Source of the DNA: a virus | Reading direction: 5' to 3' (one strand) | Length of the DNA stretch: 40,169 nucleotides | IMG/VR virus record: IMGVR_UViG_3300045988_013378 | Shown here: one piece after another, positions 3,410 through 35,256 of the stretch | How positions within the stretch are numbered: the stretch's first letter is position 1 | Layout: every line of letters begins with the position of its first letter | Made by a program: the position numbers and the translations under genes | The notes under the pieces: model-generated | The model's database searches: none | Seen by the model: the letters and a program-made list of their open reading frames with translations, nothing else | What the model was told of the DNA's origin: nothing

Positions 3410-3816
3410 CAGATTTCAACCCCCAATTCTGCATTGATTTCACCAAAAATGCTGACCACCGTGAAGGTAGTCAGCACTTTCTTTTTGTTCACCGTAAATT
3501 CAAAGTTCTGAACCGCCGTGATCCTATCATCCTGAAGCAAGGCTTCACGAACCCGGCGTTCAATTTCGGGAATACAATATTCCACATCTTTTCCGATCAG
3601 ATTATGAAGTTCAACCCCATAATCCCAAGAATGGATCAACCATTCATAGCGTTCCGTGTTCAGGATCAGGAAAACCGCCTGTTCCACAGCTTGGATTTCA
3701 TCAATGGTGCCGATGATGGTCAGGTTATCGTGGTTCATCCTGAAAGTACGGCTTGGAAGGGTTTCAATGGTGAAATCCTGTTTAATATCATCCTGCACTT
3801 GCGGAATCATCATCAA
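3409..3816 (-). CDS. Baseplate protein, XkdS-like (DUF2634, gp25-related)
   Basis: 135 aa, start/stop coupled to its neighbours. It occupies the conserved position upstream of Baseplate J in Xkd-type tails. Confidence 0.55.
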   Translation of the reverse strand: MMMIPQVQDDIKQDFTIETLPSRTFRMNHDNLTIIGTIDEIQAVEQAVFLILNTERYEWLIHSWDYGVELHNLIGKDVEYCIPEIERRVREALLQDDRITAVQNFEFTVNKKKVLTTFTVVSIFGEINAELGVEI

Positions 3817-4202
3817 GCCCCCTTTACTCGGTCAATGACCACGAATTTCTTTCCTTGCTGAACCCGGATCAGAAGCACCTTTTCACCGGCCTTCAAAGCG
3901 TTGTGAACCTTGAAGGTTTTCTTGCCAACATAGGCGTGTTTGTGGGCTTCATACGCCGCCGCACCAGAACCGCCGCCCTTGTCCTCGGTGGTGTGGTTTA
4001 CCGTCATATCAACTTCAAAATCAGTCACATTCCGGGTCAGGATCAGCATTTTAGAAGTGTAGATGGATTTCTGATCCACCTGAATTTTCAAGGGTGAAGC
4101 GGAAAGGACAGTTCCAAACAGGATGTTCACCGGCTTTCCGGCTTCCACAGCTTCCACCGCCGCCCGTTTCACAACTTCAACAGGATTAGGCAATAAATTC
4201 AC
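3813..4202 (-). CDS. Baseplate/spike-associated protein, XkdR-like (DUF2577)
   Basis: 129 aa containing NILFGTVLSASPLKIQVDQK, which is like DUF2577. It overlaps both neighbours and matches the synteny. Confidence 0.55.
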   Translation of the reverse strand: MNLLPNPVEVVKRAAVEAVEAGKPVNILFGTVLSASPLKIQVDQKSIYTSKMLILTRNVTDFEVDMTVNHTTEDKGGGSGAAAYEAHKHAYVGKKTFKVHNALKAGEKVLLIRVQQGKKFVVIDRVKGA

Positions 4203-5145
4203 CCCCGATCAGGTCAAGTTCCATCATGTGTTCATCACCCCTGAAGGTGTGGGTGACTTTGTTCACCACCATGTAATTGTTGGTGACAATATCCCCAAGG
4301 TTCAGGGCCACCACCACGGCGCTTCCAGCACGAACCCGCACATCACCGAAAGCGTTCTGAATGGTCAGCTTGCGGGTTTTCTGATCGTACAGCTTCAACA
4401 GGGCATCCGCCTTGGCGGAAGCGCCCGTTTTGGTCTGAACTTCTTCAAAATATTGAAGAACACCCCATTGGTTCATTTTCGCCCCGTCCTGTGCAATGAA
4501 CAATTCCCGCTTACCGGTTTTTTCATTGTTATAGGCCAGCTTGATCTTGTTATAGGTCTGTTCATCAATACTGGATTCATAGCTGAAGTTTTCCCCGGTT
4601 TCTTCATCAATCAGAAGGTTCAGCTTCATGGTATTGATGTTCTTCAGGGTCAGCTTCCCGGCATCGTCATACAGAACATAAAGCTGTTTGGTATTCATCA
4701 GGGTTTCATCAAGGGCGCTCTGGATCATATCAAACAGGGTTTGGTTTTCTTCCACGATGGTTTCAAGGGTATAACCGGTATCTTCCACCGTGCCAAGGTT
4801 CAACCGGAAATCTGTTGCAATGCGCTTCAGAAGGTCGGAAGCCTTCAGCCCTTCTTCCGTGATGGTGTCCTTGTTCTTCAGATAGCGCAACTGATCATAG
4901 GCCACAACATCAATGGTGCCGCCCTTGTCACGCTTTTTCTTGAACACAAACCCATAGAACATGGCGGTTCCGTTCACAGTCAGCTTCACCGGATCACCTT
5001 CAGCAAAGTTCAGCCTCGGCCCCTTGACAACGGTGAACTCTAACTTGCCAGGGGTTCCCTTGCGTTCCAAGGTCAACTTTGCGCCTTCCTCGACAACGGG
5101 GAATTGAATGGTGCTGTTATGCTGGATGAACAATTCAACTGCCAA
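4186..5145 (-). CDS. Baseplate hub protein, XkdQ / late-control-D-like
   Basis: 319 aa lying between the LysM protein and the XkdR-like gene, as in PBSX and skin-element tails. Confidence 0.6.
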   Translation of the reverse strand: MAVELFIQHNSTIQFPVVEEGAKLTLERKGTPGKLEFTVVKGPRLNFAEGDPVKLTVNGTAMFYGFVFKKKRDKGGTIDVVAYDQLRYLKNKDTITEEGLKASDLLKRIATDFRLNLGTVEDTGYTLETIVEENQTLFDMIQSALDETLMNTKQLYVLYDDAGKLTLKNINTMKLNLLIDEETGENFSYESSIDEQTYNKIKLAYNNEKTGKRELFIAQDGAKMNQWGVLQYFEEVQTKTGASAKADALLKLYDQKTRKLTIQNAFGDVRVRAGSAVVVALNLGDIVTNNYMVVNKVTHTFRGDEHMMELDLIGGEFIA

Positions 5146-5160
5146 ACGGAATCACCCCTT

Positions 5161-5832
5161 TCAGGAAGGCAAAGTAAGAACCTGACCGGGATAGATCAGG
5201 TTCGGGTTCTTGATTTTGTCCTTGTTCAGATTATAGATTTTCGTGTAATCGGCCCCGTTGCCCAACTGCTTCTTGGCAATGTTCCAAAGGCAATCACCAG
5301 ATTTCACCGTATAGGTGGCGACTTTCGGGGCCGTTGTGGTGGGCCGGGGTGCCGCCTTAACCGTTGCGGTGGCGGTTCCCCCGGAAGTCTTGGCCGGTTG
5401 CACGGCCACGGTCTTGGTGCCATAGGCTCTGTACTGTTTCAGGTTGATCTTCACCTTCACATCAAAGCCTTCACCGGCATCATCGGTGATTTCATAGGTT
5501 TCAAGGCCAACGGTCAAATTGGTGTAATGGAACATCCCGCCACCGGGCTTCTGCCGGTTCAGGATGAATTGGAACGGGGTCTTGCTCACCTTCAGCCGTT
5601 CAAACAAGGATAGGTAATAGGCGGCGCTTTGCGCCCCACCGTTGCTGAAGGGATAGGACACTTGGGGAAGAACCAATTCAAAGGACACATCCGAAAGGCC
5701 AGCGGCCTTCAGAATGTTGATTTCTTCCCCGTTGATCAGGGTCATGGTCTTGTTCTGGTTATTGATCTTCACCGTCACCTTGGAAGGGGTGATGGGCATA
5801 AGCGTTCCCGCCATATACAGTTTATACGCCAT
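5161..5832 (-). CDS. LysM-domain tail protein (XkdP-like)
   Basis: C-terminal LysM motif YTVKSGDCLWNIAKKQLGNGADYTKIYNLNKDKIKNPNLIYPGQVLTLP. The gene lies directly after the tape measure. Confidence 0.8.
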   Translation of the reverse strand: MAYKLYMAGTLMPITPSKVTVKINNQNKTMTLINGEEINILKAAGLSDVSFELVLPQVSYPFSNGGAQSAAYYLSLFERLKVSKTPFQFILNRQKPGGGMFHYTNLTVGLETYEITDDAGEGFDVKVKINLKQYRAYGTKTVAVQPAKTSGGTATATVKAAPRPTTTAPKVATYTVKSGDCLWNIAKKQLGNGADYTKIYNLNKDKIKNPNLIYPGQVLTLPS

Positions 5833-7976
5833 TACTCATGCACCCCTTCTTCAGAAACTTCCAGCTTTTCAGCAAAGTCATTGGCCCAAGCATCCATGAT
5901 CCCATCCAAATCAGCATCTTTGGAAATGTGGTTTTCATTGTGCTGTTCAACCTTGATTTCAGCGGTAGTGAACCGGTTGATTGCTTCACGCTCCGCAATG
6001 TCACGAAGATAGGCCAAATCTTCTTCAGCAATATCCAAGGCATCAGCGGTGGCCGCTGTGTTGTTTGCAATATCGCCGGTGTTCCCGTAAATGCTATCAA
6101 GATCATTGCCAAGGTTGAAGGCATCCAAAGAATCAGCCCCCATAGAATCCAAGGCGGAAAAATCAAACATACCGGAAACCTTATCGGCCACACCATCACC
6201 CCAAGCGGCACCGGAAGCAAAAGCATCAGCGGCCCAACCATCTTGGAAGGTGTCAAAGGTAGACATTCCTTCATTGAAGGCATCGGCAACGCTTTTATAT
6301 TCCTCAACATTCCCATAGGCTTCAGCGGACTTGGCCGCATATTCGCTTGCTTTGCTGGTGATCCCGGAATAGTCGAACTCAACGAAGGGCAACTTGTTCA
6401 GGGCTTCACAAATACCGGCCACAACTGTAAGGGCCGTAGAAAGAAGGTTATAAAACCATCCCTGAACATTGGAAATGACATTATGGAAGGCGGTTCCGAT
6501 ATTGGAAGCACAAGCCCCCAAAGCGTTCCAGATACCCAAGGCAATATTCGCCACGGACAGGCCAAGGTTTTTGAAGAAGGAAATCACAACCATGATTCCC
6601 CCGCAAATCACACCGAAGCCGCTATTTGCAATTCCGGTGAACTTGGCAACTGCCGCACACGCCGCATAGATAGCCGCAATGACGGCGATAATCAGAAGGA
6701 TGATCCATGTAAGGGGGCAAGCCAAAAGCGCCGCATTTAGGCCCTGCTGGGCTACCGTAGCGGTGAAAGTGGCTCCCGCTTCCATAGCAGTTGCCGCCGC
6801 ATGAACGGCCTTGGCCGTTGCCTGAATACCCATAATGGCATTTGTCACCAGCGCCACACCGTTATAAATCAGCATAGCGGCCACAATACCCATGATGATA
6901 GGCTGAATCCAACTCCAATTATCAACAATCACCGAAGCAACGGAAATCAGAATATCCAATAGCGAAGAAGCCACATTTGCAACCCCCGCAAGCCCATTGA
7001 TCAGGGCCGTGGTAACTTGCTGGAACTTGGTGCTATTGGCAATCTGGTTGATCTTGGTCAGAATCGGGGCGAACATGGAAAGGGCTTTATTTTTCATCCC
7101 GGCCCAAATCTGCGCCCAAGTCTTGGGCATGGAATCGAACTTTGCGTTGGTTTCATCCGCCATAGCAAACATGGCGTTCTTCACCACTTCAGCCGTTACC
7201 TTGCCTTCCTGTGCAACCGTCTTGATGGAACCTTCCGCAATCCCCATATACTTTTCAATAGCTCTTGCGATACCCGGCGCACCGTCCAGAATGGAGTTCA
7301 GTTCTTCACCACGAAGCGCACCCGCCGCCATTGCCTGTGTAAGCTGGATCATGGCGTTGCTTTGCTCTTGGGCCGTAGCGCCGCCAATAACAAACTGCTT
7401 GTTCACCTGCTCCATGAAAGCAATGACCTGATTCATGTCACCGTTGAAGGCGTTACCGGCGTTCAAGCCAAGTTTCGCAACGGCGGAAGCGGTATCAAAG
7501 TAAACGGATCGGGAACGCTGGGCGGAAGCCATGATCTTCTGTTCCAATACATCCACGGAACCGCCATCATCCACCAGCAGATTCAACCGGGCCTTGGTGC
7601 TTGCCAATTTATCCGAAATGTTCTGCACCTTATTGATCCCGACGATACCACCAGCGGCAACGGCAATTTTCTTGATGGTGGACAGAAGTCCATTGGCGGA
7701 ATTATTACCCCCACGAATGGAATTATTGAACTTTTGCTGTTCATTATTGGCGTTCCTGATATTTTCTTCAATGGCATCAAAGGCGGTTCCCGCTTTCGCC
7801 CATTCTTCACGGGCTTCCCGGATTGCCGCCGTGTCAACGGCTCTACCGGAAGCCTGTTGCATGGATTCAAAGGTGTTCAGCACAACACCCATAGCCTTGT
7901 GCATACTCTGAAGGGGGCTGGTAACACCATCATAAAGGGCAATAGCGGTTCGGATAGTTCCCACAGGGATCACCAC
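5832..7976 (-). CDS. Tail tape measure protein
   Basis: 714 aa, Ala/Gly-rich and helical, with a central hydrophobic block. It has a GTG start behind AAAGGTGG and follows the chaperone pair. Confidence 0.85.
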   Translation of the reverse strand: MVIPVGTIRTAIALYDGVTSPLQSMHKAMGVVLNTFESMQQASGRAVDTAAIREAREEWAKAGTAFDAIEENIRNANNEQQKFNNSIRGGNNSANGLLSTIKKIAVAAGGIVGINKVQNISDKLASTKARLNLLVDDGGSVDVLEQKIMASAQRSRSVYFDTASAVAKLGLNAGNAFNGDMNQVIAFMEQVNKQFVIGGATAQEQSNAMIQLTQAMAAGALRGEELNSILDGAPGIARAIEKYMGIAEGSIKTVAQEGKVTAEVVKNAMFAMADETNAKFDSMPKTWAQIWAGMKNKALSMFAPILTKINQIANSTKFQQVTTALINGLAGVANVASSLLDILISVASVIVDNWSWIQPIIMGIVAAMLIYNGVALVTNAIMGIQATAKAVHAAATAMEAGATFTATVAQQGLNAALLACPLTWIILLIIAVIAAIYAACAAVAKFTGIANSGFGVICGGIMVVISFFKNLGLSVANIALGIWNALGACASNIGTAFHNVISNVQGWFYNLLSTALTVVAGICEALNKLPFVEFDYSGITSKASEYAAKSAEAYGNVEEYKSVADAFNEGMSTFDTFQDGWAADAFASGAAWGDGVADKVSGMFDFSALDSMGADSLDAFNLGNDLDSIYGNTGDIANNTAATADALDIAEEDLAYLRDIAEREAINRFTTAEIKVEQHNENHISKDADLDGIMDAWANDFAEKLEVSEEGVHE

Positions 7977-8000
7977 CTTTCTTGGAGAATAGCCGGGGCC

Positions 8001-8204
8001 TTAATGGTGTCGGCCCCGGCGCTGTTTGCGTTCAATTTCCTTCTGCTTCTTCTTTTCAGCTTCCACCCGAACATCAATGGCCGCAATGATGAAGGCCCGT
8101 TCACGCCGGGGCAAAGCATAGAAGGCGGAAGGTGTTAAATGAAGTTCGTGAAGGCAATAGTAAGCAATGTTGGCTTCACCATCACCTTCACAGATCAGTT
8201 TTTT
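8001..8204 (-). CDS. -1 frameshift extension of the tail assembly chaperone (G/GT-type long form)
   Basis: From the slippery site the -1 frame is open for 65 codons (LICEGDGEANIAYYCLHELHLTPSAFYALPRRERAFIIAAIDVRVEAEKKKQKEIERKQRRGRHH) and stops at TAA 8001-8003, just before the tape measure start. Confidence 0.6.
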   Translation of the reverse strand, partial: KKLICEGDGEANIAYYCLHELHLTPSAFYALPRRERAFIIAAIDVRVEAEKKKQKEIERKQRRGRHH

Positions 8205-8620
8205 GCTTCATCAACCTCATCCTGCATGGTGGTATCAAAACCACACACTTCCTGAATCTTGGTCAGGTATTCGGCATATTCGCCGGGGGTCAGCATGGTT
8301 TTCAGAAGGGCATCAGCGCCCATGACCTTGTAGCTGTCCTGAAGTTCCTTATCATTCAGATTGGGGAACACGGTACAAGCCACGGCCAGCTTGCCAAGGT
8401 AAAGATCATAGTCGGTTTCCTTCTGATACTGGTTCTTCTTGCCGGGAACCGGAACACGCTTGGCACAGGACTTCCGAAGGGCTTCATCCTCGGTGCCGGT
8501 GATGGTCTTGATCTCCCAAGGAATGGGGTTGCCATCCTCACCCAAGAAGCGTTTGGAAGCAACAAACTTGATGTTCTCAACGGGAACGGCGTTTTCAGCC
8601 AAAAAAGCGGACAGGCTCAT
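8195..8620 (-). CDS. Tail assembly chaperone, XkdN-like
   Basis: 141-aa acidic protein between the tube and tape measure genes, ending in the slippery site. Confidence 0.7.
   Translation of the reverse strand: MSLSAFLAENAVPVENIKFVASKRFLGEDGNPIPWEIKTITGTEDEALRKSCAKRVPVPGKKNQYQKETDYDLYLGKLAVACTVFPNLNDKELQDSYKVMGADALLKTMLTPGEYAEYLTKIQEVCGFDTTMQDEVDEAKN
8198..8204 (-). promoter_or_regulatory. Slippery heptamer A_AAA_AAC for -1 programmed ribosomal frameshifting
   Basis: The minus strand reads GCA AAA AAC TGA. This is an X_XXY_YYZ heptamer in the correct phase, followed directly by the 0-frame stop codon. Confidence 0.6.
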
Positions 8621-8647
8621 TGTTTTTTCCTCCTATATTTTGATACG

Positions 8648-8685
8648 AAAAAAGGCCCCGGCCCCTACCGAAGTAAGGCCGGGGC
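8648..8685 (-). terminator. Rho-independent terminator (probably partial) after the tail tube gene
   Basis: Minus strand: GCCCCGGCC-(13 nt loop)-GGCCGGGGC, followed by C and TTTTTT. Confidence 0.65.
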
Positions 8686-8692
8686 GCTCTGC

Positions 8693-9169
8693 TTACTGCA
8701 TACCGGCCAAAAGGCTGAAGGTTTCGGGCATCTCGAAATCTTCAAAGGTGAAGTCCATATCTTCATCCAAGTATTCCGCATCAGCATCAAACTTGGCAAG
8801 CAAGCCGCCATCCATATTGCAATCCTTCAGGATCACGGTCTGTCGGCCCACGGAAGAAGTGGGATCTTCATTTGTCACCTGAATGTCAAAATAGACATCC
8901 TCGCCGGTGTCCTTATAACGCTTCATCAGCTCACGGAAGATGGAAGTGTTATAGTGGAAGGTGGCGGAACCCGTACCCTTCCAGCCGGTGGCCTTATTGC
9001 CCTTGCCGGTCTTGCCCAAAATGGGAACTTCCGTTTTGTTCTTCTCAAAGTTGGCTTCAAGGTTGATAGCCTGCATGAAGTTGTAACGGTTATCCCCGAT
9101 GGTCACGAAACATTCAGCCAAGGAAGCGGAAACAGCATCCTTGGCGTTCATGATGGTTCTATCTGCCAT
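8693..9169 (-). CDS. Tail tube protein (XkdM-like)
   Basis: 158 aa immediately after the sheath gene. Sequence MADRTIMNAKDAVSA...ECFVTIGDNRYNF...EVPILGKTGKGNKATGWKG resembles XkdM-family tubes. Confidence 0.8.
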   Translation of the reverse strand: MADRTIMNAKDAVSASLAECFVTIGDNRYNFMQAINLEANFEKNKTEVPILGKTGKGNKATGWKGTGSATFHYNTSIFRELMKRYKDTGEDVYFDIQVTNEDPTSSVGRQTVILKDCNMDGGLLAKFDADAEYLDEDMDFTFEDFEMPETFSLLAGMQ

Positions 9170-13617: not shown

Positions 13618-14220
13618 TTAGTCCAACTTTGCATCCGGGTGGGCTTCCAAATACTGACACAGTTCATCATAGGTCATTTTGGAAGGATCATCACCGGCCG
13701 GGGGTGTATCACTCTTTTCACCGGGCTTGGCACCCTTGAACTTCTTATCAGGGGCCTTGGTGTCAAACAGAAAAGCCGTGTCCTGACCGTCCACCAGCTT
13801 CTTGATTTCGTCACCCAAACCCTTCACCGTGCCATCATCGGCCAGTTCAGCCTTGGCAAGAAAATCAGCCATCAGCGCCTTAACAGCGGTGTTGTTCTTG
13901 GCCTTGGCTCCGGTCAATGCCACATCAACGGCGTTGCCAATCTTCAACGCCTTCATTTCGGCTTCATGGGCCTTCTTCTGATTGGCGTTGTCGGTCTGAA
14001 GCTGGGTGATCTGATCCTGAAGCGCCTTGGTGTCACCTGTGGACTTCTTCAGCGTTTCAAGCTGGGTGTCACGCTCTTTGATCGTGTTCTTTGCGTTGGT
14101 CAGTTCGGTGTTGACCTCGTTGAAGCGGCTTTTGGTTACGAAAGAACCGTTCAGGCCCTCCATGACCTTATTGGCCTGTTCCTCGGTCAAGCCCCATTCC
14201 AGCAGTTTTTCCTTTGTCAT
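13618..14220 (-). CDS. Scaffolding protein (Phage_GP20-like)
   Basis: Coiled-coil, Lys/Glu/Gln-rich protein beginning MTKEKLLEWGLTEEQANKVMEGLNG. ATG 14220 sits behind GGAGG, which is better than the track start at 14235. Confidence 0.8.
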   Translation of the reverse strand: MTKEKLLEWGLTEEQANKVMEGLNGSFVTKSRFNEVNTELTNAKNTIKERDTQLETLKKSTGDTKALQDQITQLQTDNANQKKAHEAEMKALKIGNAVDVALTGAKAKNNTAVKALMADFLAKAELADDGTVKGLGDEIKKLVDGQDTAFLFDTKAPDKKFKGAKPGEKSDTPPAGDDPSKMTYDELCQYLEAHPDAKLD

Positions 14221-14318
14221 AGTGATAACCTCCAAATCCTTTTTTACCGTGGGTTAGGAACCACGATTTCATTTAGATTTCTGTTTACCGCCCACAAATC
14301 CAAAACGGCGATGGTATG

Positions 14319-14350
14319 AAAAAACCACCACCGGCCAAAGGCCGGGGTGG
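14319..14350 (-). terminator. Rho-independent terminator after the MuF/orf54 pair
   Basis: Minus strand: CCACCCCGGCC-TTT-GGCCGGTGGTGG, followed by TTTTTT. Confidence 0.7.
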
Positions 14351-14358
14351 TCAGATCA

Positions 14359-14523
14359 TCAATATAGGGATTTTTCATCCAGTTCAGGTGGCCGGTAAGG
14401 GGTTCCCTTATCCAAACAATCCTGAATAATGGCTTCCACTTCCGCTTCCTCGACACCCATCAGGGCGAACAGGGGGAAGTTCTCATGAAATCGTTCAAGA
14501 TATTGTTCAATCAGTTCAGCCAT
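14359..14523 (-). CDS. Small acidic protein (54 aa); candidate partner or immunity protein of the MuF C-terminal domain
   Basis: MAELIEQYLERFHENFPLFALMGVEEAEVEAIIQDCLDKGTPYRPPELDEKSLY. The RBS AAAGGGG overlaps the MuF stop codon. Confidence 0.45.
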   Translation of the reverse strand: MAELIEQYLERFHENFPLFALMGVEEAEVEAIIQDCLDKGTPYRPPELDEKSLY

Positions 14524-14537
14524 TTTCAACACCCCTT

Positions 14538-16427
14538 TCACGGCTGATTTGCAATCACCTTCAACATATCTTCATACATGGCATAGGACTTGGGAAGATA
14601 TTTCTTGATGGTTGCCAAACTTTCCGGGGAAGTCATGGTTGCGGAAGTCATTTCCGCAAAGGCTTCAGTTCCAAGGCCCCAATCAATCCCGTTGTAAGTT
14701 CGGGTTGTCCAGTAGGAACCGCCACCATGACCAATGCCACAGCGGATTTTTCCACGGGTGGCCCCTTCCAATATATCAGAAAGATCACCGTACTGCAATG
14801 GGGTTAATGCCTTCACTTCCGCTTGAACGGCGGCATAGGCATAAGATTTTTTCACCTTGAACCCACCATACTTGATGTAATAATCAGCGGTGTTTTGCGA
14901 CATCCAGCCTTTTTGTACCCAATACGGGAAATCATCTTTATGGGCCTTCATGTCAGCAAGAACCCGATCCACCCAATCATTCACTTCATCCTTGATGGTT
15001 TGTGGAAAAGCCCCGCCCTTGTAAGTAGAAGAAAAATGCCATTGCCCATTCGGGGTTCCAAGCTGTGCCGCAAGGCCATCAATGGCATGGCCGCTTTCAT
15101 GGAAAGTGGTGGCATAAGGGGCGCTCCAAGAACGGCCCTTCCCGTCAGCGTCAATATTCACATAAATGCTATTGCCCTGACAGTATGCACCGCCTTGATG
15201 GTTCGCCTTTGCAACCTTGATTTTGGTTTCATACTTATCCCAAGCGGCCTGAAGGTCAGGGCTTTGGCAAGCGTCCACACGGTCACGAATCTGATCATAA
15301 TGGTCTTTGCCGAACTTCTTTCCAAACTCGGTGTTGTAGTCACGAAGCGTTTTGGCAACACCGGCCCCGGTTGCAACGGTCAAGCCAGCCTTGGAACCAC
15401 CGTTCACGAAGGTCTGAACCCAATCAGCATATTTCATGTTGGCGGGAACATAGTACACATCCCCATCAGCGTTCCGGGCGGCTCTTTCACCGGCATACTT
15501 GGGATCAATGGCCGGGGCCGTAGTTCCTCGACAGTTGGGGTGGAAGGGTGGCACGGTCACGCCGGGTTCATATTGGGAAATGGGGATCACCTTACCATCA
15601 AGCCCACCACAAATGGAACAGGTATGGGAATCCAGCGTTTCAATGATTTCCACCATTTCAACATCCAAATCCTTGTAACATTCCTTAGTTGCAACGGCGT
15701 TGAAATAGGTGGTTTCGGTGTTGACCAACCGCCCCGCCTTATACCGATGAACCCCGAACTGCTTCTGAATGGCCGTGGTGATCTTGGACGGGGAATCACC
15801 CCGAAGAAGCCCTTGCGTCAGGCTCTTACTGACCGAACCCACCAAATCATTCTTGTTCAGCCAACAGCGATCCCGGAAGGTTCGCCCGTCCGTTGTCCAA
15901 GGCTTTGAAAGCAAGGTTTCAAGTTTCTTCTGATCCAGCCCGGTAATATCCCAACCAAGGCCAACGCCCTTCTGAACCTCAAAGGCCGTGTGGGTGTAGC
16001 CATTGCCCACAACTTTCTTCAACAGGGCATCCAGACTATCAACCTGATTGCCATACAGCAATTCAAGCTGTTGCTGAATACCTGTCTGAACAGCTTCAAG
16101 GCGGGAAATGTGGAACCGGGCGGACGCATTTTCCAGCTTCTTCAGCCATGCCGCATCCAACCCGGCCTGTTCACCGATCTTGATATACTGTTCAACGCTC
16201 CAATGAAATTCTTCAAGCTGTCCAGCGGTCAGCCATTTTCGGGCATCGGTCAGGCTGATTTGGTTGTTCACCGCAAAACGAGCATACCAGCTTTCAATTT
16301 CCTTCTGAACTGAACGCTGGGCATCCAAATACAGTTCTTCCATGTCCTGAATGGTTCGCTGGGCTTCTCGGTGGGCGCTGTCCTCCAAGATGGAAAACCG
16401 TCCACGCCAATAGTCCGCATTTCTCAT
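14538..16427 (-). CDS. MuF / SPP1 gp7-like minor head protein fused to a C-terminal HExxH (zincin-like) domain
   Basis: The true start is ATG 16427 (MRNADYWRGRF) behind GGAGGA; the longer track ORF runs through tRNA-Leu. The MuF core ends at PPFHPNCRGT. About 320 extra residues follow, carrying HESGH (nt 15087-15101). Confidence 0.85.
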   Translation of the reverse strand: MRNADYWRGRFSILEDSAHREAQRTIQDMEELYLDAQRSVQKEIESWYARFAVNNQISLTDARKWLTAGQLEEFHWSVEQYIKIGEQAGLDAAWLKKLENASARFHISRLEAVQTGIQQQLELLYGNQVDSLDALLKKVVGNGYTHTAFEVQKGVGLGWDITGLDQKKLETLLSKPWTTDGRTFRDRCWLNKNDLVGSVSKSLTQGLLRGDSPSKITTAIQKQFGVHRYKAGRLVNTETTYFNAVATKECYKDLDVEMVEIIETLDSHTCSICGGLDGKVIPISQYEPGVTVPPFHPNCRGTTAPAIDPKYAGERAARNADGDVYYVPANMKYADWVQTFVNGGSKAGLTVATGAGVAKTLRDYNTEFGKKFGKDHYDQIRDRVDACQSPDLQAAWDKYETKIKVAKANHQGGAYCQGNSIYVNIDADGKGRSWSAPYATTFHESGHAIDGLAAQLGTPNGQWHFSSTYKGGAFPQTIKDEVNDWVDRVLADMKAHKDDFPYWVQKGWMSQNTADYYIKYGGFKVKKSYAYAAVQAEVKALTPLQYGDLSDILEGATRGKIRCGIGHGGGSYWTTRTYNGIDWGLGTEAFAEMTSATMTSPESLATIKKYLPKSYAMYEDMLKVIANQP

Positions 16428-16452
16428 GGGCGGTTCCTCCAATCCTGAAAAA

Positions 16453-16538
16453 TGGTGCTGAAGGTGGGATTTGAACCCACACGCCTTGCGGCAACGGATT
16501 TTGAATCCGCCGTGTCTGCCTATTCCATCCACTTCAGC
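16453..16538 (-). tRNA. tRNA-Leu (anticodon CAA), class II with long variable arm, CCA encoded
   Basis: GCTGAAG acceptor stem pairs with CTTCAGC-A-CCA. The anticodon loop is TTCAAAA, the T arm is GTGGG-TTCAAAT-CCCAC, and the variable arm is about 13 nt. Confidence 0.9.
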
Positions 16539-16608: not shown

Positions 16609-16683
16609 TGGTAGCCCGTGCCGGGATCGAACCGGCGTTACCGCCGTGAAAGGGCGGTGTCTTGACCACTTGACCAACGGGCC
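16609..16683 (-). tRNA. tRNA-Glu (anticodon TTC), CCA encoded
   Basis: GGCCCGTTGGTCAAGTGGTCAAGACACCGCCCTTTCACGGCGGTAACGCCGGTTCGATCCCGGCACGGGCTACCA folds as a cloverleaf with anticodon loop CTTTCAC. It closely resembles Firmicutes tRNA-Glu. Confidence 0.9.
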
Positions 16684-16785: not shown

Positions 16786-18273
16786 TTATTCGCCCCCACC
16801 ATTATCACCTTGGTTCGGGTTGCCGGTCTGGAAAGCCCCGGCGTATTCCTGTGCCTGTGCCATAGCTTCTTCCTTTTCCTTCTGCAACCGGGCCATTTCT
16901 GCTTCAACATCCGTAACCCACGGGTGCTGTTCCACAATGGTTTCATTGGACAGAATACCAACGGACTTGGAACAGTTTTCAATGGATTCCGATTCATTGA
17001 TCAGAATATCCCTGTTGAACACAATCGCCACATCATCCGTGAAATCTCCAACGCCGGTGTTGCTGAAGTGGTTGTTGATGAACCACAACAGTTCTTCAAA
17101 GGCCGCTTGGAACTCGGTTTCCATGCCGTTTGCGTCAAGGTCAATGTCAGAATACATGGATTGAATGTTCATCTGATTGGGATTCCCGGACAAGCGATCA
17201 TCTTTGGCATCGTAGCCACGGGCATTTTCAATCAGGGCTTTCTTGAACACATCCAAAATGGCCTTGTAGTTCTCGGAACTGACTTCCACCGTCAGGGTGG
17301 TAACACCACCATCATCACGAACCTTCACGGCTCCGAAGGTGGCAAGGTTGCGGCGGAACTCACCAAGATTTTCACCATCGTAATTCTTCAGGATCAGGAT
17401 GGTGTTCCGTGCGTCCTCTTGCATATTGTTTTCAAAGTCGGAAATCATGGTGTTGATTCCGTCCTGAAGGGTTTTCACACGGCGAATCAGGGGGATTTCC
17501 TGTTTGTTATACTTGAACGGAATCAGGGGAATCCGTTCCCAATTCAATTCGGTGGGTTCCTTGCCTTCTTCCTCAATGGTGAAGTAGCTTTCATGTTCCC
17601 CGGCTTCCACATCAGGCTTCAGTTCGCTTCCATCATAGATATACCGGTAAAGGCCATCGGTCTTGAACAGTTCAACCCGTTCAATGATTTTCTTGGTATA
17701 TCCATCCCACACTTCCTGCGGGTAAAGACGGATAGCAGAATCAAGGATGGTGTGATCATCGTCAGCCCAAAACGGAAGGACTTCATAGGCTGGGAAATGC
17801 TTGAAGGCCAAATTGCCCTTTTTGTCATAGAACGGGAACAACCAGCCAAGGCCACCATTCAAGGCATCTTCACAAACATACTTCAGAAGCCGGTGGAACC
17901 GCTTATTGAACACATTGTTCAAAGCATCCGCATAGGCTTTATTCTGACAGTTCACCGTGAAGGGCTTGCCCACAAGGTAGTTGGTTTTCTGATCCACCAT
18001 CAGGGCATATTGGTTATCAATCAGGCGATTGTTCGGAAGATTATCCACTTCCTGAAGTTTGCCATCAGCGCCAATGATTGTGCGCTTCCGGTTCAGAATG
18101 TCATGACGGCCTTCATAGTAATCAGCGCCCTTAATCTGATCCAGACGCTTCAGGCTGTTCTTCCATTCACGGATTTCAGCGGCGTAAAACTGAAGTTCAG
18201 TCATGCCGGTTCGCCCACCCTGAAGGATCAGGCGGTTGATACGCTCCATAGCGTTATCCAGAAACATATTCAA
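16786..18273 (-). CDS. Portal protein (SPP1 gp6-like)
   Basis: 495 aa, lying after the large terminase gene. The acidic C-terminus and the segment DNLPNNRLIDNQYALMVDQKTNYLVGKPF resemble the SPP1 portal family. Confidence 0.85.
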   Translation of the reverse strand: MNMFLDNAMERINRLILQGGRTGMTELQFYAAEIREWKNSLKRLDQIKGADYYEGRHDILNRKRTIIGADGKLQEVDNLPNNRLIDNQYALMVDQKTNYLVGKPFTVNCQNKAYADALNNVFNKRFHRLLKYVCEDALNGGLGWLFPFYDKKGNLAFKHFPAYEVLPFWADDDHTILDSAIRLYPQEVWDGYTKKIIERVELFKTDGLYRYIYDGSELKPDVEAGEHESYFTIEEEGKEPTELNWERIPLIPFKYNKQEIPLIRRVKTLQDGINTMISDFENNMQEDARNTILILKNYDGENLGEFRRNLATFGAVKVRDDGGVTTLTVEVSSENYKAILDVFKKALIENARGYDAKDDRLSGNPNQMNIQSMYSDIDLDANGMETEFQAAFEELLWFINNHFSNTGVGDFTDDVAIVFNRDILINESESIENCSKSVGILSNETIVEQHPWVTDVEAEMARLQKEKEEAMAQAQEYAGAFQTGNPNQGDNGGGE

Positions 18274-21589: not shown

Positions 21590-21929
21590 CGGTTTTCCCT
21601 CCTTCTTCTCTGTACCATTCTTCAATGTCACACCCAATGTCCTTCAGCTTTTTACGGGCCAACCACCCATCATCGGCTTGTTCCATCAGGTAATGTTCCC
21701 GTAGCTTCAAGGTTTCGGCATAGAACAGCTTCCACGCCAGCTTCAGGCGCTTTGGGCCAAAGCCAAATTGGGTATGAAGCATCCACAGGATGGATGATTC
21801 TTTGTCCATGTCAAAGGCCCGATCATTTTCCACAATCTGTTTCTTGATTTCCTGATCCAAGGCCCGTTCTTCAGCTTTATTGAACTGAACGGCGAAAATT
21901 TTACCACCGGACTTCTTAAACATCGGCAT
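21582..21929 (-). CDS. Hypothetical protein
   Basis: ORF starting MPMFKKSGG behind GGAG; no domain recognised. Confidence 0.45.
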   Translation of the reverse strand: MPMFKKSGGKIFAVQFNKAEERALDQEIKKQIVENDRAFDMDKESSILWMLHTQFGFGPKRLKLAWKLFYAETLKLREHYLMEQADDGWLARKKLKDIGCDIEEWYREEGGKTDA

Positions 21930-22557
21930 GGTATTCACTCCAAATATCATCGAAGCAAACCGGAATCAGGGCGTGAACCTTGTCCAACAGGATCAGGGCC
22001 ACTTCCCGCATCTGCGGGTGTGCGGCGGGTGAACAGCGCAACTTCAGGAAATGCCGCCATTCACGAATGTTGGCCGTCATGACCACTTCCGTTTTCAGGC
22101 TGTTGGGAAGAACCGAACGGGCTTCTTGCGGTGTGCATCCTTCCGCCAGCATATCAAAATAGCGAATTTCCACCCCTTCACAGGCATCCCGCCAATAGTC
22201 ATAGGCTCTGGAACCGGGTTCAAGGAAGCAAGGTTCAATCACCGTGATTTCCTCACCGAACTTGCCCTTGCCGTAATTACAATAGCGGGTGGATTCCTGA
22301 CAGTAAGAAGCCATCCGGTGGCGGACGATCTCATGAGAAACCCCACGATCACAAATGAACTTCACCGTAAAGGAACAATGTTCCAGAACCGCTTCATGCC
22401 CACGCTTGATGATCCCGGCAACGAACTTTTCAGCGGAACCTTCCGTGATCTTATCCTCGGACTTGTAGCAGACACGGCCACATTGTTCCAGCCGCTTCAG
22501 AATGGTGGCCCCATCAATCGGGGTGATAAACTGCACATCAGGCTTGATAATTTTCAT
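21916..22557 (-). CDS. thyX: FAD-dependent thymidylate synthase ThyX
   Basis: ThyX signature RHRMASYCQESTRY, plus EHCSFTF-like HEAVLEHCSFTV. The likely start is MKIIKPDVQF behind GAGG. Confidence 0.9.
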   Translation of the reverse strand: MKIIKPDVQFITPIDGATILKRLEQCGRVCYKSEDKITEGSAEKFVAGIIKRGHEAVLEHCSFTVKFICDRGVSHEIVRHRMASYCQESTRYCNYGKGKFGEEITVIEPCFLEPGSRAYDYWRDACEGVEIRYFDMLAEGCTPQEARSVLPNSLKTEVVMTANIREWRHFLKLRCSPAAHPQMREVALILLDKVHALIPVCFDDIWSEYHADV

Positions 22558-22568
22558 TTTCTTCAACC

Positions 22569-22895
22569 TCACAATTCATTCCGGTGCTGTGACCGGTAAG
22601 GATCGAACCCTTCAGGGTAACGCTGTTCCAGCTTTTTCAAGTTTTCTTCCATGACCGTATCAAGGTCAGAACCAATGGCATCACACAAAACGGCCAAATA
22701 CCAAGCCACATCACCAAGTTCTTCAATCATGTGGCGCTTGTTCAGTTCATGGCCGTGGAAGAAATGTTTCTTCACCTGTTCGGCCACTTCACCGGCTTCA
22801 CCGCAAAGGCCCAAGGCACATTCCAGCTTCAGCCGATCCATGTTGGAACGGTCAGCGGTTCGCAAGGAATCCCGCATATAACGGTTAGCGTTCAT
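22569..22895 (-). CDS. MazG-like nucleoside triphosphate pyrophosphohydrolase
   Basis: GLCGEAGEVAEQVKK...EELGDVAWYLAVL is the EExxE/ExxD pattern of the all-alpha NTP-PPase fold. Confidence 0.8.
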   Translation of the reverse strand: MNANRYMRDSLRTADRSNMDRLKLECALGLCGEAGEVAEQVKKHFFHGHELNKRHMIEELGDVAWYLAVLCDAIGSDLDTVMEENLKKLEQRYPEGFDPYRSQHRNEL

Positions 22896-23190
22896 CGGCG
22901 TGTTCCTCCGCTTTCAGATCGTCCAGTTCAAGAACCGTCATAATGGCGTAATTGGCAAGGTCAATCAGGGTATCACGGATAGATTCATCCTTGACTTCCT
23001 GAACCTCGGATTTGGTCAGGCTCTTGAACCGGGCCAGCTTATCCCCAAGTCTGATCCGGGGCATTGCCATTCCTTCTTCCGTGAAGGTCTGGTGAAAGCT
23101 ATCGCCATAGTCATGATTTTTCATGGCATACAAGGCATTGATTTCCTTGCAAATATCGGCATGGCGTTCCGTTTTGGTTTTAGGTAACAT
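22885..23190 (-). CDS. DUF1599-like (MazG-fold, nucleotide-modification-associated) protein
   Basis: YAMKNHDYGDSF...RLGDKLARF...DLANYAIM resembles DUF1599. The start is behind AAAGGA. Confidence 0.5.
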   Translation of the reverse strand: MLPKTKTERHADICKEINALYAMKNHDYGDSFHQTFTEEGMAMPRIRLGDKLARFKSLTKSEVQEVKDESIRDTLIDLANYAIMTVLELDDLKAEEHADER

Positions 23191-23962
23191 TGAAATCATC
23201 CTTTCTGTTCGGAATCATTTTTTTCTTGGCGGCTATGTAGAAGTTTTTATCCACTTCAAACCCATAGGCGTTTCGGCCTAATTCATAAGCGGCACGAAGG
23301 GTTGTTCCGCTTCCGGCAACAGGATCAATAACCACATCCCCCGGATCGGTAAACACTTCAATCAACCGCTTCAGCACACCAACCGGCTTTTGGGTGGGGT
23401 GGATTTTGGGATACTCCTTCCGGTTGTCCCGTTCCCAAGTGAACCAGTTGAAAACCATGTGCTTGTTTCCGTCAGGGCCAATGTTTCGGAACTTGGGAAG
23501 TTTATCCCGATACAGCACCACCGCAAATTCTGTGGCACCAACAATCTTCATGTTGGCCTTCAGAACTTGGGCGGAATAGTTCTTTGTAAAGAACAGCGGG
23601 TAAGACTTTTCAAACCCATATTTCTTCCCGTAGTCAATGACGGTTTGCATCTGCTCAAAGGCACAGAACACAATCATAGCCGGGGCCTGTCCTTTCTCCT
23701 TTGGTTCCTTCCGAAGAAGGCGGTTGCAGAAGTGCATATATTCCGCAATCTTGAAGGTGCCATCCGTATGAAAGAAGCTGGATTTTGCCAACTTACTTTC
23801 CCCGTTCTTGTTGTCGCCGCCCTGATACCACATAGGATTACTTGCGTAAGCATCAACCCCGATATTATAGGGAATATCAGCAATGACAAGTTGGGCTTTG
23901 GGAATATTGTACCTTTTGAAATTTTGAAAATTATCATGGTACAGTTCAATTTTAGTATCCAT
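23180..23962 (-). CDS. Orphan DNA methyltransferase, beta-class N6A/N4C (N6_N4_Mtase)
   Basis: Motif IV (IADIPYN) lies N-terminal to HPTQKP and motif I (VIDPVAGSGTT). No cognate endonuclease gene is nearby. Confidence 0.85.
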   Translation of the reverse strand: MDTKIELYHDNFQNFKRYNIPKAQLVIADIPYNIGVDAYASNPMWYQGGDNKNGESKLAKSSFFHTDGTFKIAEYMHFCNRLLRKEPKEKGQAPAMIVFCAFEQMQTVIDYGKKYGFEKSYPLFFTKNYSAQVLKANMKIVGATEFAVVLYRDKLPKFRNIGPDGNKHMVFNWFTWERDNRKEYPKIHPTQKPVGVLKRLIEVFTDPGDVVIDPVAGSGTTLRAAYELGRNAYGFEVDKNFYIAAKKKMIPNRKDDFNVT

Positions 23963-23965
23963 TGG

Positions 23966-25855
23966 TTATTCCTCACTTTCTTCTACAAACACCCGGCATT
24001 TCCCAAGGCGGCTGATCCACTTATCCACAATCACCAACCCACAACGCTTGGTGATCTGTCTGGAAAACTCGATGTTGGAAAGGGCTTGGAAGTTGTTTGC
24101 AATGCAATATTCCTTATACTTCCGGTAAACCGTCTTGGTAGGCTCATTCACAATGCAATCCAGCCCAATTTCTTTGATGAACCCAATAATGGGATTGTTG
24201 TTTTCCTCGTATTCGTCCAACTGCCCCTGAACTCTGCTGGATGTGGTGAACTGTGCGTTCCCAAGAACCCGCTTCAACCCCTGAAGGCCAAGCAAGGCCA
24301 GATATTCCATTGAACCCTGTTCACACAGTTCATCCTTGATGAACGGGCGGAAGTCAGCATCGTTGGGGGTAAACTTGGCATCGAAGGGAACAATCACCAA
24401 ACGCCGCTGAACGGCTCCGGTTTTGTCCTTGATACGGGGAATATTGTTGGCGCTGAACAGGAACTTGGAATAATTGTTGAACTCAAAGGGGTCTTGGCCC
24501 TTGCGCTCCACATTCACCCGATCACCTGTGACCAGTTTTTTGAACACAGAAGCATTGGCAATAAATTCATCACCAATATCATCACCGATGTTCGCCAGCT
24601 TGCCGAACAGTTCAGCGGTTTTGAACCTATCACCCAATTCCTTCAGGTCAAGGGAAGCAATGTTCTGATCTCCAAGAAGGTTCTTCACCACATGAAGGAA
24701 GGTGGATTTGCCGTTGCTCTTATCGCCAATCAGGATGAAGGCTTTGCCAAGTTCGTTGCGGCGGTACATACAATAGCCCACCATTTCTTCCAGCAAGGCC
24801 CGAACTTCAGGATCATCACAGGCCAGCCGGTTCAGGGTATGATCCAACAGATCATCATGGGCGGCGGGGTTGTACGGCCACGGGATTTTGTTTGTAATGA
24901 CCACATCCGGGGTGAACTCTTTGAAGGAACCATCCCGGATATTGTAAAGGCCGTTGCTGAAAGCAATGATATTCGGGTTGGTGGCCTTGGTGTTTTCCTC
25001 AATCATGATTTCCAGATAGGACAGGACTTCCGAACGCCACGCCCGTTTCAGGTTGCTGATCAGCTTGATCATGGCCCCTTCAATCTCACCGGCACCGGAA
25101 ACATAGATACCATCCTTGTAAATGTGAAGCTGGTTATTGATCTTCACAATATGGTTGTTGTTCTTCAGGTAGGTGGCGAACTTATCAAACAGGAAGGTTT
25201 TATCCCGGAAGAAGGATGTTTTCTTGAAAGCATCATCCCGAAGGATCACATCAAGTTCCTTGTCGGAAAGGGGCTTCTTCAGCACATAACGGTTAATCAG
25301 CCTGATACATTCACGGGCTTCTTCCTTGGTGAAATCGTCACTCTGAAGGGTCAGAATGTAGTTGAACAGGGTTTGGTTCCGCCCATCACCTTCCCCAAGG
25401 TTCGGGAAATCATAGTTGCTTTTCACTGGGGTCAGCCACTTGGGAAGTTCCTGAATCTCCCCTTCAGGGAAGTCATACAGAATGGGCCGTTCCACGCCAC
25501 CGGACTTCAAGATTTCATAGCTGTTATTGGCTCCAACCTTTCCATCCGTGGTGATACCCACGGCCAAGGTGCATTTCGTCCAGCTTTTTTTAACACCACA
25601 GTTCTTGAACAAGAAGTGTTTTCCCCGTGTGGTGGCGTACACTCTGCACTTCAGTTCTAAATCCTGAACAATTCTGAACAAAAGTTCAGATGTTTCCGCA
25701 TCGTCCACATCAATCAGGATGGTTTCTTCTCCAAGAATACCGGCGTATTCATCAAGGTCTTGGACTTCTGAACGGGTTTTCAGTTTTTCAACACCTTTGA
25801 ACTTTTCAAGGCATTGTTTGTTTCTGGTAGGCACATAGCCCCTAAACAGTTCCAT
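23966..25855 (-). CDS. Primase-polymerase / D5-like SF3 helicase (P4-family primase C-terminal domain)
   Basis: 629 aa. The N-terminal region ILIDVDD...TTRGKHFLF looks like a prim-pol domain, and the Walker A motif is LIGDKSNGKST. Confidence 0.85.
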   Translation of the reverse strand: MELFRGYVPTRNKQCLEKFKGVEKLKTRSEVQDLDEYAGILGEETILIDVDDAETSELLFRIVQDLELKCRVYATTRGKHFLFKNCGVKKSWTKCTLAVGITTDGKVGANNSYEILKSGGVERPILYDFPEGEIQELPKWLTPVKSNYDFPNLGEGDGRNQTLFNYILTLQSDDFTKEEARECIRLINRYVLKKPLSDKELDVILRDDAFKKTSFFRDKTFLFDKFATYLKNNNHIVKINNQLHIYKDGIYVSGAGEIEGAMIKLISNLKRAWRSEVLSYLEIMIEENTKATNPNIIAFSNGLYNIRDGSFKEFTPDVVITNKIPWPYNPAAHDDLLDHTLNRLACDDPEVRALLEEMVGYCMYRRNELGKAFILIGDKSNGKSTFLHVVKNLLGDQNIASLDLKELGDRFKTAELFGKLANIGDDIGDEFIANASVFKKLVTGDRVNVERKGQDPFEFNNYSKFLFSANNIPRIKDKTGAVQRRLVIVPFDAKFTPNDADFRPFIKDELCEQGSMEYLALLGLQGLKRVLGNAQFTTSSRVQGQLDEYEENNNPIIGFIKEIGLDCIVNEPTKTVYRKYKEYCIANNFQALSNIEFSRQITKRCGLVIVDKWISRLGKCRVFVEESEE

Positions 25856-25891
25856 GCTTCAACGCTCCCCCCCCCCGAAAGGTTTTATTGT

Positions 25892-27694: not shown

Positions 27695-27828
27695 CAACTC
27701 ACATCCTTTCAGCTTTTGTGAAATCGGTCAGCGTTTCCGCCTTATCAGCCCCGCCACGGGAAGGCTTTCACTTGGGGCCACTCCGGGGCTTTCGCCCCGG
27801 CTTGAAAGTGAACTTTCAAAAATGGTTG

Positions 27829-27877
27829 GTGTCCTAAAAGACACTTCCATTGTAAAAAATTTTGGGTCAGTTTTCAA
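27829..27877 (-). promoter_or_regulatory. Promoter TTGAAA-17-TACAAT with a 16-bp inverted-repeat operator 4 nt downstream (in front of the polymerase operon)
   Basis: -35 at 27872-27877, -10 at 27849-27854, operator GTGTCTTTTAGGACAC (minus strand) at 27829-27844. The architecture matches the early promoter at 37440-37488. Confidence 0.55.
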
Positions 27878-28337: not shown

Positions 28338-28365
28338 AGTTTTTTACCTCCAAAAAATGTATTTA

Positions 28366-28753: not shown

Positions 28754-28766
28754 TTTGGGTTCCTCC

Positions 28767-31425: not shown

Positions 31426-31429
31426 CGGC

Positions 31430-34791: not shown

Positions 34792-34813
34792 TGCTTTACT
34801 CCTTTTCTAAAAA

Positions 34814-35242: not shown

Positions 35243-35256
35243 TGTGCGTACTCCTT

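Follow-up and report, generated by a model that had tools for sequence, protein, structure and literature searches.

The 40,169-nucleotide virus record IMGVR_UViG_3300045988_013378 from IMG/VR (hereinafter, the window, that is, the whole stretch of DNA analyzed here) encodes, on the minus strand, a 629-residue protein in which a MuF-type minor head protein is fused to a C-terminal zincin-like domain, and directly downstream, a 54-residue acidic protein that we denote orf54. Between nearly identical phages, the zincin domain and orf54 are swapped together as a single cassette, and we consider it fairly likely that the locus is a MuF-type polymorphic effector cassette, with the MuF portion as the carrier, the zincin domain as a metallopeptidase effector and orf54 as its cognate partner, most likely, an inhibitor. 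We favor a polymorphic toxin system because the cassette of domain and partner is exchanged and recurs on other carriers, and because most of the alternative C-termini have small open reading frames (ORFs) of their own. An earlier reading of the same DNA (hereinafter, the original prediction), in which an effector with a partner protein was proposed, is supported as far as sequence analysis reaches. The main features of the locus are the following:

14538..16427, minus strand: MuF-zincin fusion gene, 629 amino acids (aa), ~70 kDa (ATG at 16427, TGA at 14540..14538)
15519..15833, minus strand: MuF/SPP1 gp7 core, aa 199-303 (PF04233, TIGR01641)
15362..15373, minus strand: left cassette boundary, a Gly/Ala-rich linker at aa ~352-355 (...GLTVATGAGV...), placed where identity is lost in the related loci L166, L181, L201 and L186
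14541..15344, minus strand: C-terminal zincin-like domain, aa ~362-629, an uncurated family delineated from homologs and an AlphaFold2 (AF2) model
15087..15101, minus strand: HESGH, aa 443-447, the predicted zinc-binding and catalytic motif (HESGHAID with the invariant Asp)
14709..14738, minus strand: GIGHGGGSYW, aa 564-573, with candidate transition-state-stabilizing His, Tyr and Trp
14649..14666, minus strand: EAFAEM, aa 588-593, the first Glu being the predicted third zinc ligand
14530..14537, minus strand: AAGGGGTG, Shine-Dalgarno-like sequence of orf54, read from the sequence
14359..14523, minus strand: orf54, 54-aa acidic partner protein, stop codon included (ATG at 14523..14521; phrog_29127, E 1.3e-6)
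14319..14352, minus strand: intrinsic terminator with a 13-bp G+C-rich stem (14352..14323) and U6

A scan of IMG/VR with the N-terminal part of the MuF protein (aa 1-374) yielded 80 loci, and the C-termini form five clusters on MuF N-termini that are 83-100% identical to that of the window:

Cluster 0, 30 loci: the zincin domain of the window, with orf54 downstream
Cluster 1, 16 loci: a 296-aa tail with HEEMH...YGHGSQYY...ETLAN, with its own 70-aa ORF
Cluster 2, 9 loci: a different 347-aa HExxH domain (HEFGHQLDD...SEMIAEGW) with no Pfam match, with its own 50-aa ORF
Cluster 3, 9 loci: 134-137 aa, PBECR2 nuclease (PF18810, E 1.2e-11), with no abutting ORF and a ribbon-helix-helix-like ORF ~290 nt downstream
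Cluster 4, 7 loci: 183 aa, Gln_amidase 'papain fold toxin 1' (PF15644, E 3.9e-13), with its own 72-aa ORF

The tail in cluster 1 is homologous to the zincin family of the window (hhalign 93.5%, E 2e-7), and the PBECR2 and Gln_amidase matches both exceed the gathering thresholds, that is, represent recognized toxin domains. All the alternative cassette types except PBECR2, that is, three of four, have an abutting small ORF of their own. Swapping of the C-terminal domain among MuF relatives, which had been anticipated, is borne out by these five clusters, two of them with curated toxin domains; rather than being invariant, the C-terminus is polymorphic on N-termini that share 93-98% identity with that of the window.

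Comparison of the DNA sequences delineates the exchanged segment precisely. The L166 locus, a member of cluster 1, matches the window with 98.7% identity at positions 18300-15362 and with 97.6% identity at positions 14369-12476, with nothing alignable in between; L186, from cluster 4, shows the same pattern, with breakpoints at 15368 and 14365. Up to the left boundary, the flanking DNA is 97-99% identical to L166, L181, L201 and L186, and at the protein level, homology to the cassette variants stops at aa 357-366. The right breakpoint, at 14362-14369, coincides with the orf54 stop and is located upstream of the terminator; the terminator and the scaffold and capsid genes are outside the cassette and are common to all variants. 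Because DNA identity breaks at ~15365 and ~14365, the exchanged unit is the ~14365-15365 segment of the window, which is exactly the zincin domain with orf54.

This pattern bears on an alternative explanation under which the domain would be a prohead maturation protease that cleaves the scaffold, portal or capsid protein, and orf54 would be a small head or assembly protein. There is no prohead protease gene among the scanned genes of the head module (portal, MuF, orf54, scaffold and major capsid protein (MCP)), the N-terminal part of the fusion protein matches phrog_595, which is labeled 'head maturation protease', and in one relative, the domain is fused to an XkdF-type protease, all of which fits such a role. 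However, portal, scaffold and MCP are 97-99% identical in phages that carry a nuclease, a deamidase or another domain instead, and it is the C-terminal domain, rather than the head genes, with which the small ORF co-varies. Because phages with near-identical head genes replace the domain, it is not needed to build the head; furthermore, SPP1-type heads assemble without proteolysis. A head-maturation protease is effectively ruled out by the isogenic phages that swap the domain out, and we regard this explanation as extremely improbable.

The carrier itself is readily recognized. Phage_Mu_F (PF04233) matches aa 199-303 (E 4.7e-13, 50.3 bits vs the gathering cutoff of 29.6), and the phageSPP1_gp7 model (TIGR01641) matches aa 200-306 (E 1.2e-21, 77.1 bits vs the cutoff of 39.65), so that the hidden Markov model scores are above the curated thresholds; the gene also occupies a position in the head and packaging module after the portal gene, with two tRNAs in between. 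The PHROG minor head protein families span aa 1 to ~397, and phrog_4728 spans the full length of the protein. The MuF core had been predicted to end at PPFHPNCRGT near codon 300, and indeed, this motif is found at aa 293-302, at the end of the MuF domain. Residues 1 to ~355 make up a conserved SPP1-gp7/MuF minor head protein.

The linkage between the zincin domain and orf54 extends far beyond the close relatives of the window. In five distant contigs, the domain is directly followed by a 46-64-aa homolog of orf54 (30-85% identity) in which the Y, F, F-P and I positions are invariant. In the forward test, IMG/VR was scanned with the domain profile, yielding 78 loci to which the loci identified earlier and the window were added, and a locus was counted if its downstream sequence was present: in each of the 81 loci counted, the domain is followed by an orf54-type ORF that starts between -4 and +42 nt from the domain stop. 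The linkage holds down to 41% identity of the domain and 30% identity of the partner. In the reverse test, a scan with the small-ORF profile yielded 54 new loci, 52 of which encode a zincin upstream (48 direct and 4 divergent homologs, the latter carrying HEMAH or HEFNH, WGHGxxYY and SELWAN); the two exceptions are one that is a weak match only and one orphan. Thus co-conserved in both directions and exchanged as one cassette, orf54 is what we take to be the cognate partner of the zincin domain, as surmised from the window itself.

The orphan orf54-like ORF (L126, positions 2989-3150), with no zincin nearby, belongs to another phage, where it is located at the end of the tail module and follows a gene for a secreted protein of 601 aa that contains SLH and pectate-lyase-like repeats. 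This ORF is a candidate orphan immunity gene.

The orf54 product is strongly acidic (pI 4.2, with 13 acidic and 4 basic residues), in line with the original description of a 54-aa acidic ORF with a ribosome-binding site at the MuF stop codon. The AAGGGGTG sequence adjoins the MuF TGA, opening the 14-nt spacer, and ends 6 nt before the orf54 ATG, with the G-run ending 8 nt before it; orf54 is probably translationally coupled to the MuF gene. An alternative GTG start that overlaps the MuF stop would yield a 60-aa protein, and this GTG is missing in some of the relatives. The pair is closed, as had also been proposed, by a strong terminator located just beyond the interval that was originally delimited; the free energy of the hairpin is -28.2 kcal/mol (z = -5.7), and 0 of 200 shuffled sequences are equally stable. 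In the protein database searched, orf54 has 164 homologs, and those listed are all stand-alone proteins of 47-89 aa without annotation. The AF2 model of orf54 consists of three short helices in aa 1-40, with the predicted local distance difference test (pLDDT) values of ~88-91, followed by an acidic tail that is disordered. Among the 36 non-redundant members of the family, 27 end in Tyr and the others in W, H, V or I.

These properties are relevant to the possibility that the domain is an effector as proposed but orf54, instead of an inhibitor, is a domain-specific chaperone, a packaging adaptor or a second co-injected factor. The identity ranges of 30-45% for orf54 and 41-50% for the domain correspond to about equal evolutionary rates, such that orf54 is less divergent than typical immunity proteins, and in being very small and helical with a disordered acidic tail, orf54 resembles many secretion chaperones. 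Three of the four alternatives, however, come with an unrelated abutting small ORF, which is the classic toxin-immunity layout (PMC5576092); the orphan ORF in L126 is better compatible with an orphan immunity gene than with a chaperone, and the MuF toxin Apk2 is neutralized by such a downstream protein (PMC12226406). We consider a chaperone or adaptor quite unlikely and an inhibitor the preferred role of orf54.

The zincin domain belongs to an abundant family. We identified 43 close homologs of the domain in metagenomes, and a profile search against 1.84 billion cluster representatives (50% identity) produced 2,004 matches at E<=1e-3, including 356 at E<=1e-30; among the matches listed, most are proteins of ~450-700 aa. 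The HESGH motif is located exactly where the original prediction placed it, and the GIGHGGG and EAFAEM segments are present at aa 564-570 and 588-593, respectively. In the alignments of the family (A1, A3 and A5), the two His and the Glu of HExxH and the Asp three residues downstream are invariant in 32 of 32, 32 of 32 and 48 of 48 members, respectively. H193, Y198 and W199 (domain numbering), which belong to the GHGxxYW motif, are invariant in A5; conservation of E214, the first Glu of EAFAE, is complete or at least 90%, and unlike the second Glu, this residue persists in divergent homologs; and the Asp of SDILEGAT is invariant or nearly so in the alignments of 32 and 48 members. The divergent cassette types with YGHGSQYY and WGHGKKYY keep the His and the Tyr, with a second Tyr in place of the Trp. 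The invariance of the H, E, H and Asp across the aligned members leads us to reject a chance HExxH motif and, given that all the catalytic-type residues are invariant, an inactive pseudo-enzyme as well; the same residues speak for the domain being an active zinc endopeptidase.

The AF2 model of the domain built with the family alignment is of high confidence (pLDDT 95.2, predicted template modeling score 0.92) and consists of three strands (30-33, 41-43 and 46-48), the HExxH helix (65-78), a long helical insertion and the EAFAE helix (209-225). The model accordingly places a mixed beta-sheet before the HExxH helix and the third-ligand Glu on a later helix, as predicted for a zincin fold, and the order of the elements is the same as in the zincin core topology described by Iyer et al. 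(PMC5512222). The model is not that of a capsid or decoration protein, the outcome that had been named as speaking against an enzyme; the predicted zincin topology and the invariance of the putative metal ligands instead bear out the zincin-like HExxH domain of the original prediction. We conclude that the domain is a predicted metallopeptidase of the gluzincin type (HExxH + Glu), with a helical insertion of ~100 residues between the putative metal-binding helices.

Assignment of the domain to a known family is less straightforward. When a broader family profile was compared with the PDB, the top matches were PPEP-1/Zmp1, lethal factor, MMP-20 and thimet oligopeptidase, with E values of 0.36-2. 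The PPEP-1 alignment (E 0.36) consists of two colinear blocks, one aligning HEsGHaID with HETAHAID and the other atEAFAem...kkylPksy with PKEFFAES...SACPQTY. At this level of similarity, which is below significance, the domain resembles the M34/ATLF peptidases in the HExxHxxD signature on the active-site helix (HESGHAID vs HETAHAID of PPEP-1) and, in the same order, a later E-[AF]-F-A-E helix that would provide the third zinc ligand and a P-x-[ST]-Y block near the C-terminus, as well as in a conserved Tyr upstream of the Glu helix. It differs from M34 in the distance between HExxH and the Glu, ~140 residues vs ~40-45, and in the extra helical insertion, which has its own invariant motifs, SDILEGAT and GHGxSYW. 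Pfam ATLF (PF07737) is also the most common sub-threshold family among the members (12 of 32 and 9 of 48, best E 8.6e-4), and lethal factor and PPEP-1/Zmp1 account for most of the weak Foldseek matches in the PDB (E 2.4-6, TM score 0.15-0.19), values at which the domain does not superpose on either protein. Taken together, these observations suggest that the domain is probably a distant relative of M34. The M34 enzymes, such as anthrax lethal factor, PPEP-1/Zmp1 and PPEP-2, are highly specific endopeptidases with few target proteins, and the M34-like features hint at a narrow, protein-specific range of substrates for the zincin domain as well.

The second family to be considered is MPTase-PolyVal (PMC5512222), which likewise consists of phage-borne zincins on virion-packaged carriers including MuF, has a remote link to lethal factor, contains a clade with an Asp after HExxH and variable inserts between the catalytic helices, and co-occurs with ADP-ribosyltransferases in some members. 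Unlike these, the window protein has no Pfam match in this region, consists of just two domains and is paired with a small partner gene of its own, and no dedicated small partner is mentioned in the description of polyvalent proteins (PMC5512222). The MPTase-PolyVal Pfam model does not match the window domain at E<=10 and is not among the families matching at least two relatives. On the strength of these profile and structure searches, we assign the domain neither to ATLF nor to MPTase-PolyVal.

The PDB sequence searches with the single sequence and with the first profile produced only noise (lysozyme repeats, ficin and Vs.4); in BFVD, Foldseek with the domain model retrieved only unannotated 'minor capsid proteins' with the same architecture; and among 50,697 records of annotated phage genomes, neither a megablast search with the locus nor a tblastn search with the 240 C-terminal residues detected a match, which means that the domain is absent from annotated isolates.

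Several results weigh against an effector metallopeptidase with a dedicated inhibitor. Neither Pfam nor NCBIfam nor the PDB sequence set contains a significant match to aa 375-629; ATLF does not match the window protein at E<=10, and the matches of the relatives are all below the gathering score. Structure comparison, by which the original prediction was to be checked, yielded no significant match: for the domain model, Foldseek against the PDB returned nothing at E<=0.001, with the best E of ~1, the weak lethal factor and PPEP-1 hits mentioned above being dominant, and for the orf54 model, the same search detected no matching fold or analogue. One member of the family, P0007, has a Y instead of the first His of HExxH. 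Finally, in P0092 and P0175, the domain is part of longer chains, namely, Phage_min_cap2 + ADP-ribosyltransferase + zincin and MuF + ADP-ribosyltransferase + zincin, and these chains fit a processing peptidase of polyvalent proteins rather than a toxin proper.

Under this alternative, the domain would be a processing peptidase with no host target that cleaves its own chain or capsid-internal proteins in the head or after ejection, releasing or activating cargo, and orf54 would block premature cleavage. Zincin-like metallopeptidases are a hub domain of polyvalent proteins for which autoprocessing has been proposed, and one clade of phage-type enzymes contains the Asp three residues after HExxH, as does the window domain (PMC5512222). 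In addition to the chains with the ADP-ribosyltransferase, P0107 combines a 2'-5' RNA-ligase-like domain, an XkdF-type serine protease and the zincin in a single chain. In the window protein, however, MuF is the only other domain, which leaves no cargo to release; in isogenic phages, a stand-alone nuclease or a deamidase toxin takes the place of the domain; where the zincin is encoded by a separate gene, as in L001 and L005, release is not needed; and the Pfam MPTase-PolyVal domain is not detected. A processing peptidase therefore seems unlikely to us, and we retain the effector cassette as the preferred reading of the locus.

Besides MuF, the zincin domain is carried by Phage_min_cap2, VG15 and a 60-aa N-terminal module (in L003), or is encoded by a stand-alone gene. 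Where the N-terminal domains were scanned, the carriers are of the phage type only (a head protein or a gene beside one), and none belongs to a bacterial secretion system. In L001 (4840-6717) and L005 (1893-3795), the zincin is a separate gene located directly after MuF, with a 36-nt spacing in L001 and a 47-nt overlap in another frame in L005; the separation may be genuine or may reflect a frameshift or a sequencing error. In L004 (2199-5011), a zincin-bearing Phage_min_cap2 gene is cut by an ORF for a NUMOD4/HNH_3 homing endonuclease into genes for 284 and 336 aa.

The most elaborate arrangement is found in L003 (positions 2932-8708; ENA ERZ27268086 k141_125807), where five consecutive cassettes have in common an unrelated N-terminal module of ~60 aa (...DDRWITINADEEEGRKGQHVLIKENGxIVYGLGGKFK...). 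The C-termini are two zincins of the window type, one Mx1/ATLF-like zincin and two Cys-protease-like domains (phrog_7104), and each cassette has its own small ORF, either orf54-like (64 aa), DUF7675 (66 aa) or a 60-aa one. A link from the window family to a curated family via the Mx1/ATLF-like zincin of this locus was considered and rejected, hhalign having aligned the HExxH helix only, with a 21% probability.

The systems closest to the one described here are the MuF polymorphic toxins of temperate phages, 191 of which have been catalogued, 20% with metallopeptidase domains and 89% with a small downstream ORF (Jamet et al. 2017, PMC5576092). As in those, the window locus combines an N-terminal MuF/gp7 domain in the packaging module with a variable C-terminal enzyme and a small ORF directly downstream, the host belongs to Firmicutes (Bacillota), and C-termini are exchanged between related phages; the alternative C-termini, the recognized toxin domains among them, the co-varying small ORF and the presence of the domain on other trafficking carriers are all features of such toxins. 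There are differences, too: the zincin, which has no Pfam or NCBIfam model, would be a 'C-terminal extension of unknown domain' in the scheme of Jamet et al., and many of the other MuF warheads are common to toxins of bacterial secretion systems, whereas the zincin, among the members scanned, is seen only on phage head-protein carriers or as a stand-alone gene next to one. A further parallel is T4 Alt, a head-packaged enzyme that enters with the DNA and modifies proteins of the host as infection begins (cited in PMC5512222 and PMC5576092); Alt is an ADP-ribosyltransferase and thus differs in both the carrier and the chemistry, and its packaging and ejection have been demonstrated, whereas those of the MuF-zincin protein are presumed.

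The effector cassette would be expected to operate as follows. By analogy with SPP1 gp7, the only protein of this kind known to be bound to the portal inside the capsid and released on infection (cited in PMC5576092), the MuF part may place one or a few copies of the fusion protein inside the capsid at the portal. The fusion protein would then be packaged and ejected into the cell along with the DNA, a route of delivery that has been proposed for MuF-fused domains by Jamet et al. (PMC5576092) and Iyer et al. (PMC5512222). Early in infection, the zincin might cleave a host protein, itself or co-packaged proteins. In the producing cell or the assembling virion, orf54 would bind to the protease and block its active site, keeping it silent until packaging. 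A possible model for such inhibition is the characterized MuF toxin Apk2 and its partner IapK/Aph1, in which IapK occludes the Apk2 active site (PMC12226406). It is a speculation that the conserved C-terminal Tyr of orf54, on a floppy acidic tail, makes it a plug-type inhibitor. More specifically still, the zincin and orf54 could be an undescribed phage-specific protease-inhibitor pair, widespread in phages of gut Clostridia, in which the tail Tyr would plug the active site as a product mimic, the partner would be stripped at packaging, and the armed M34-like endopeptidase would cleave a host defense or regulatory protein; we offer this detailed scenario as a tentative possibility that is somewhat doubtful in its entirety.

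Systems of this kind are already known: the MuF toxins reported in 2017 include ones that carry metallopeptidase domains and have small ORFs downstream (PMC5576092). The novelty lies in an abundant zincin family and an abundant partner family, neither with a curated model, and in a clean allelic series in Faecalibacterium phages. The roles proposed for phage-delivered MuF toxins include an interbacterial weapon, a modulator of the lysis-lysogeny decision and an anti-defense effector, and of the types covered by the literature cited here, just two, the nucleotide-pyrophosphokinase (Apk2) and the ADP-ribosyltransferase (EFV), have been studied. To these, the present locus adds a large uncurated family of protease-like warheads with a clear catalytic signature and a partner family with almost absolute linkage. 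The natural allelic series, found in phages of an abundant human gut commensal, allows one to ask how each warhead benefits the phage, and curation of both families would improve the annotation of thousands of 'minor capsid protein' genes. Because the idea itself has already been published, the value of these findings is incremental rather than conceptual.

The phage is probably a temperate myovirus of Faecalibacterium and related Oscillospirales. Copies of the zincin domain that are 96% identical are present in the cultured isolates Faecalibacterium tardum CLA-AA-H175 (a 60-kb contig) and Faecousia intestinalis CLA-AA-H192 (a 147-kb contig), more distant copies are found in Acutalibacter, Neglectibacter, other Clostridia and a few other phyla, and orf54 homologs are present on contigs of 0.6-1.5 Mb. 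We consider the lifestyle probably temperate because near-identical copies are located inside large bacterial contigs, although a PHROG scan of ~20 larger ORFs in the 40-kb window detected no integrase, which weighs against it. The head module around the MuF-zincin gene is SPP1-like by PHROG annotation, with the gene order, on the minus strand, TerS, TerL, portal, tRNA-Glu, tRNA-Leu, MuF, orf54, scaffold and MCP, followed by myovirus tail genes. The segment 21916-36102, also on the minus strand, contains the phage's own replication and nucleotide metabolism genes. The annotated genes outside the cassette are the following:

13618-14235, minus strand: scaffold (PHROG)
16786-18273, minus strand: portal (PHROG)
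21916-22572, minus strand: thymidylate synthase
23180-23962, minus strand: DNA methyltransferase
23966-25855, minus strand: primase
25892-27697, minus strand: DNA polymerase
29102-31087, minus strand: exonuclease/Sak4-like protein
33068-34426, minus strand: helicase
35257-36102, minus strand: PAPS-reductase-like protein
within 21916-36102, minus strand: single-stranded DNA-binding protein (SSB)

Two tRNA genes, tRNA-Leu(CAA) at 16453-16538 and tRNA-Glu(UUC) at 16609-16683, both on the minus strand, are located inside the head module, downstream of portal and upstream of MuF. In L140, L181 and L186, ~215 extra nt (at about 2760-3000) separate tRNA-Leu from the MuF start codon; these are missing in the window (16427-16452) and in L166. 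The tRNA cluster between portal and MuF is retained in this lineage of phages, with a variable content: L201 encodes tRNAs for Glu, Leu, Thr (GGU) and Gln (UUG), and L220 and L221 encode the one for Glu only.

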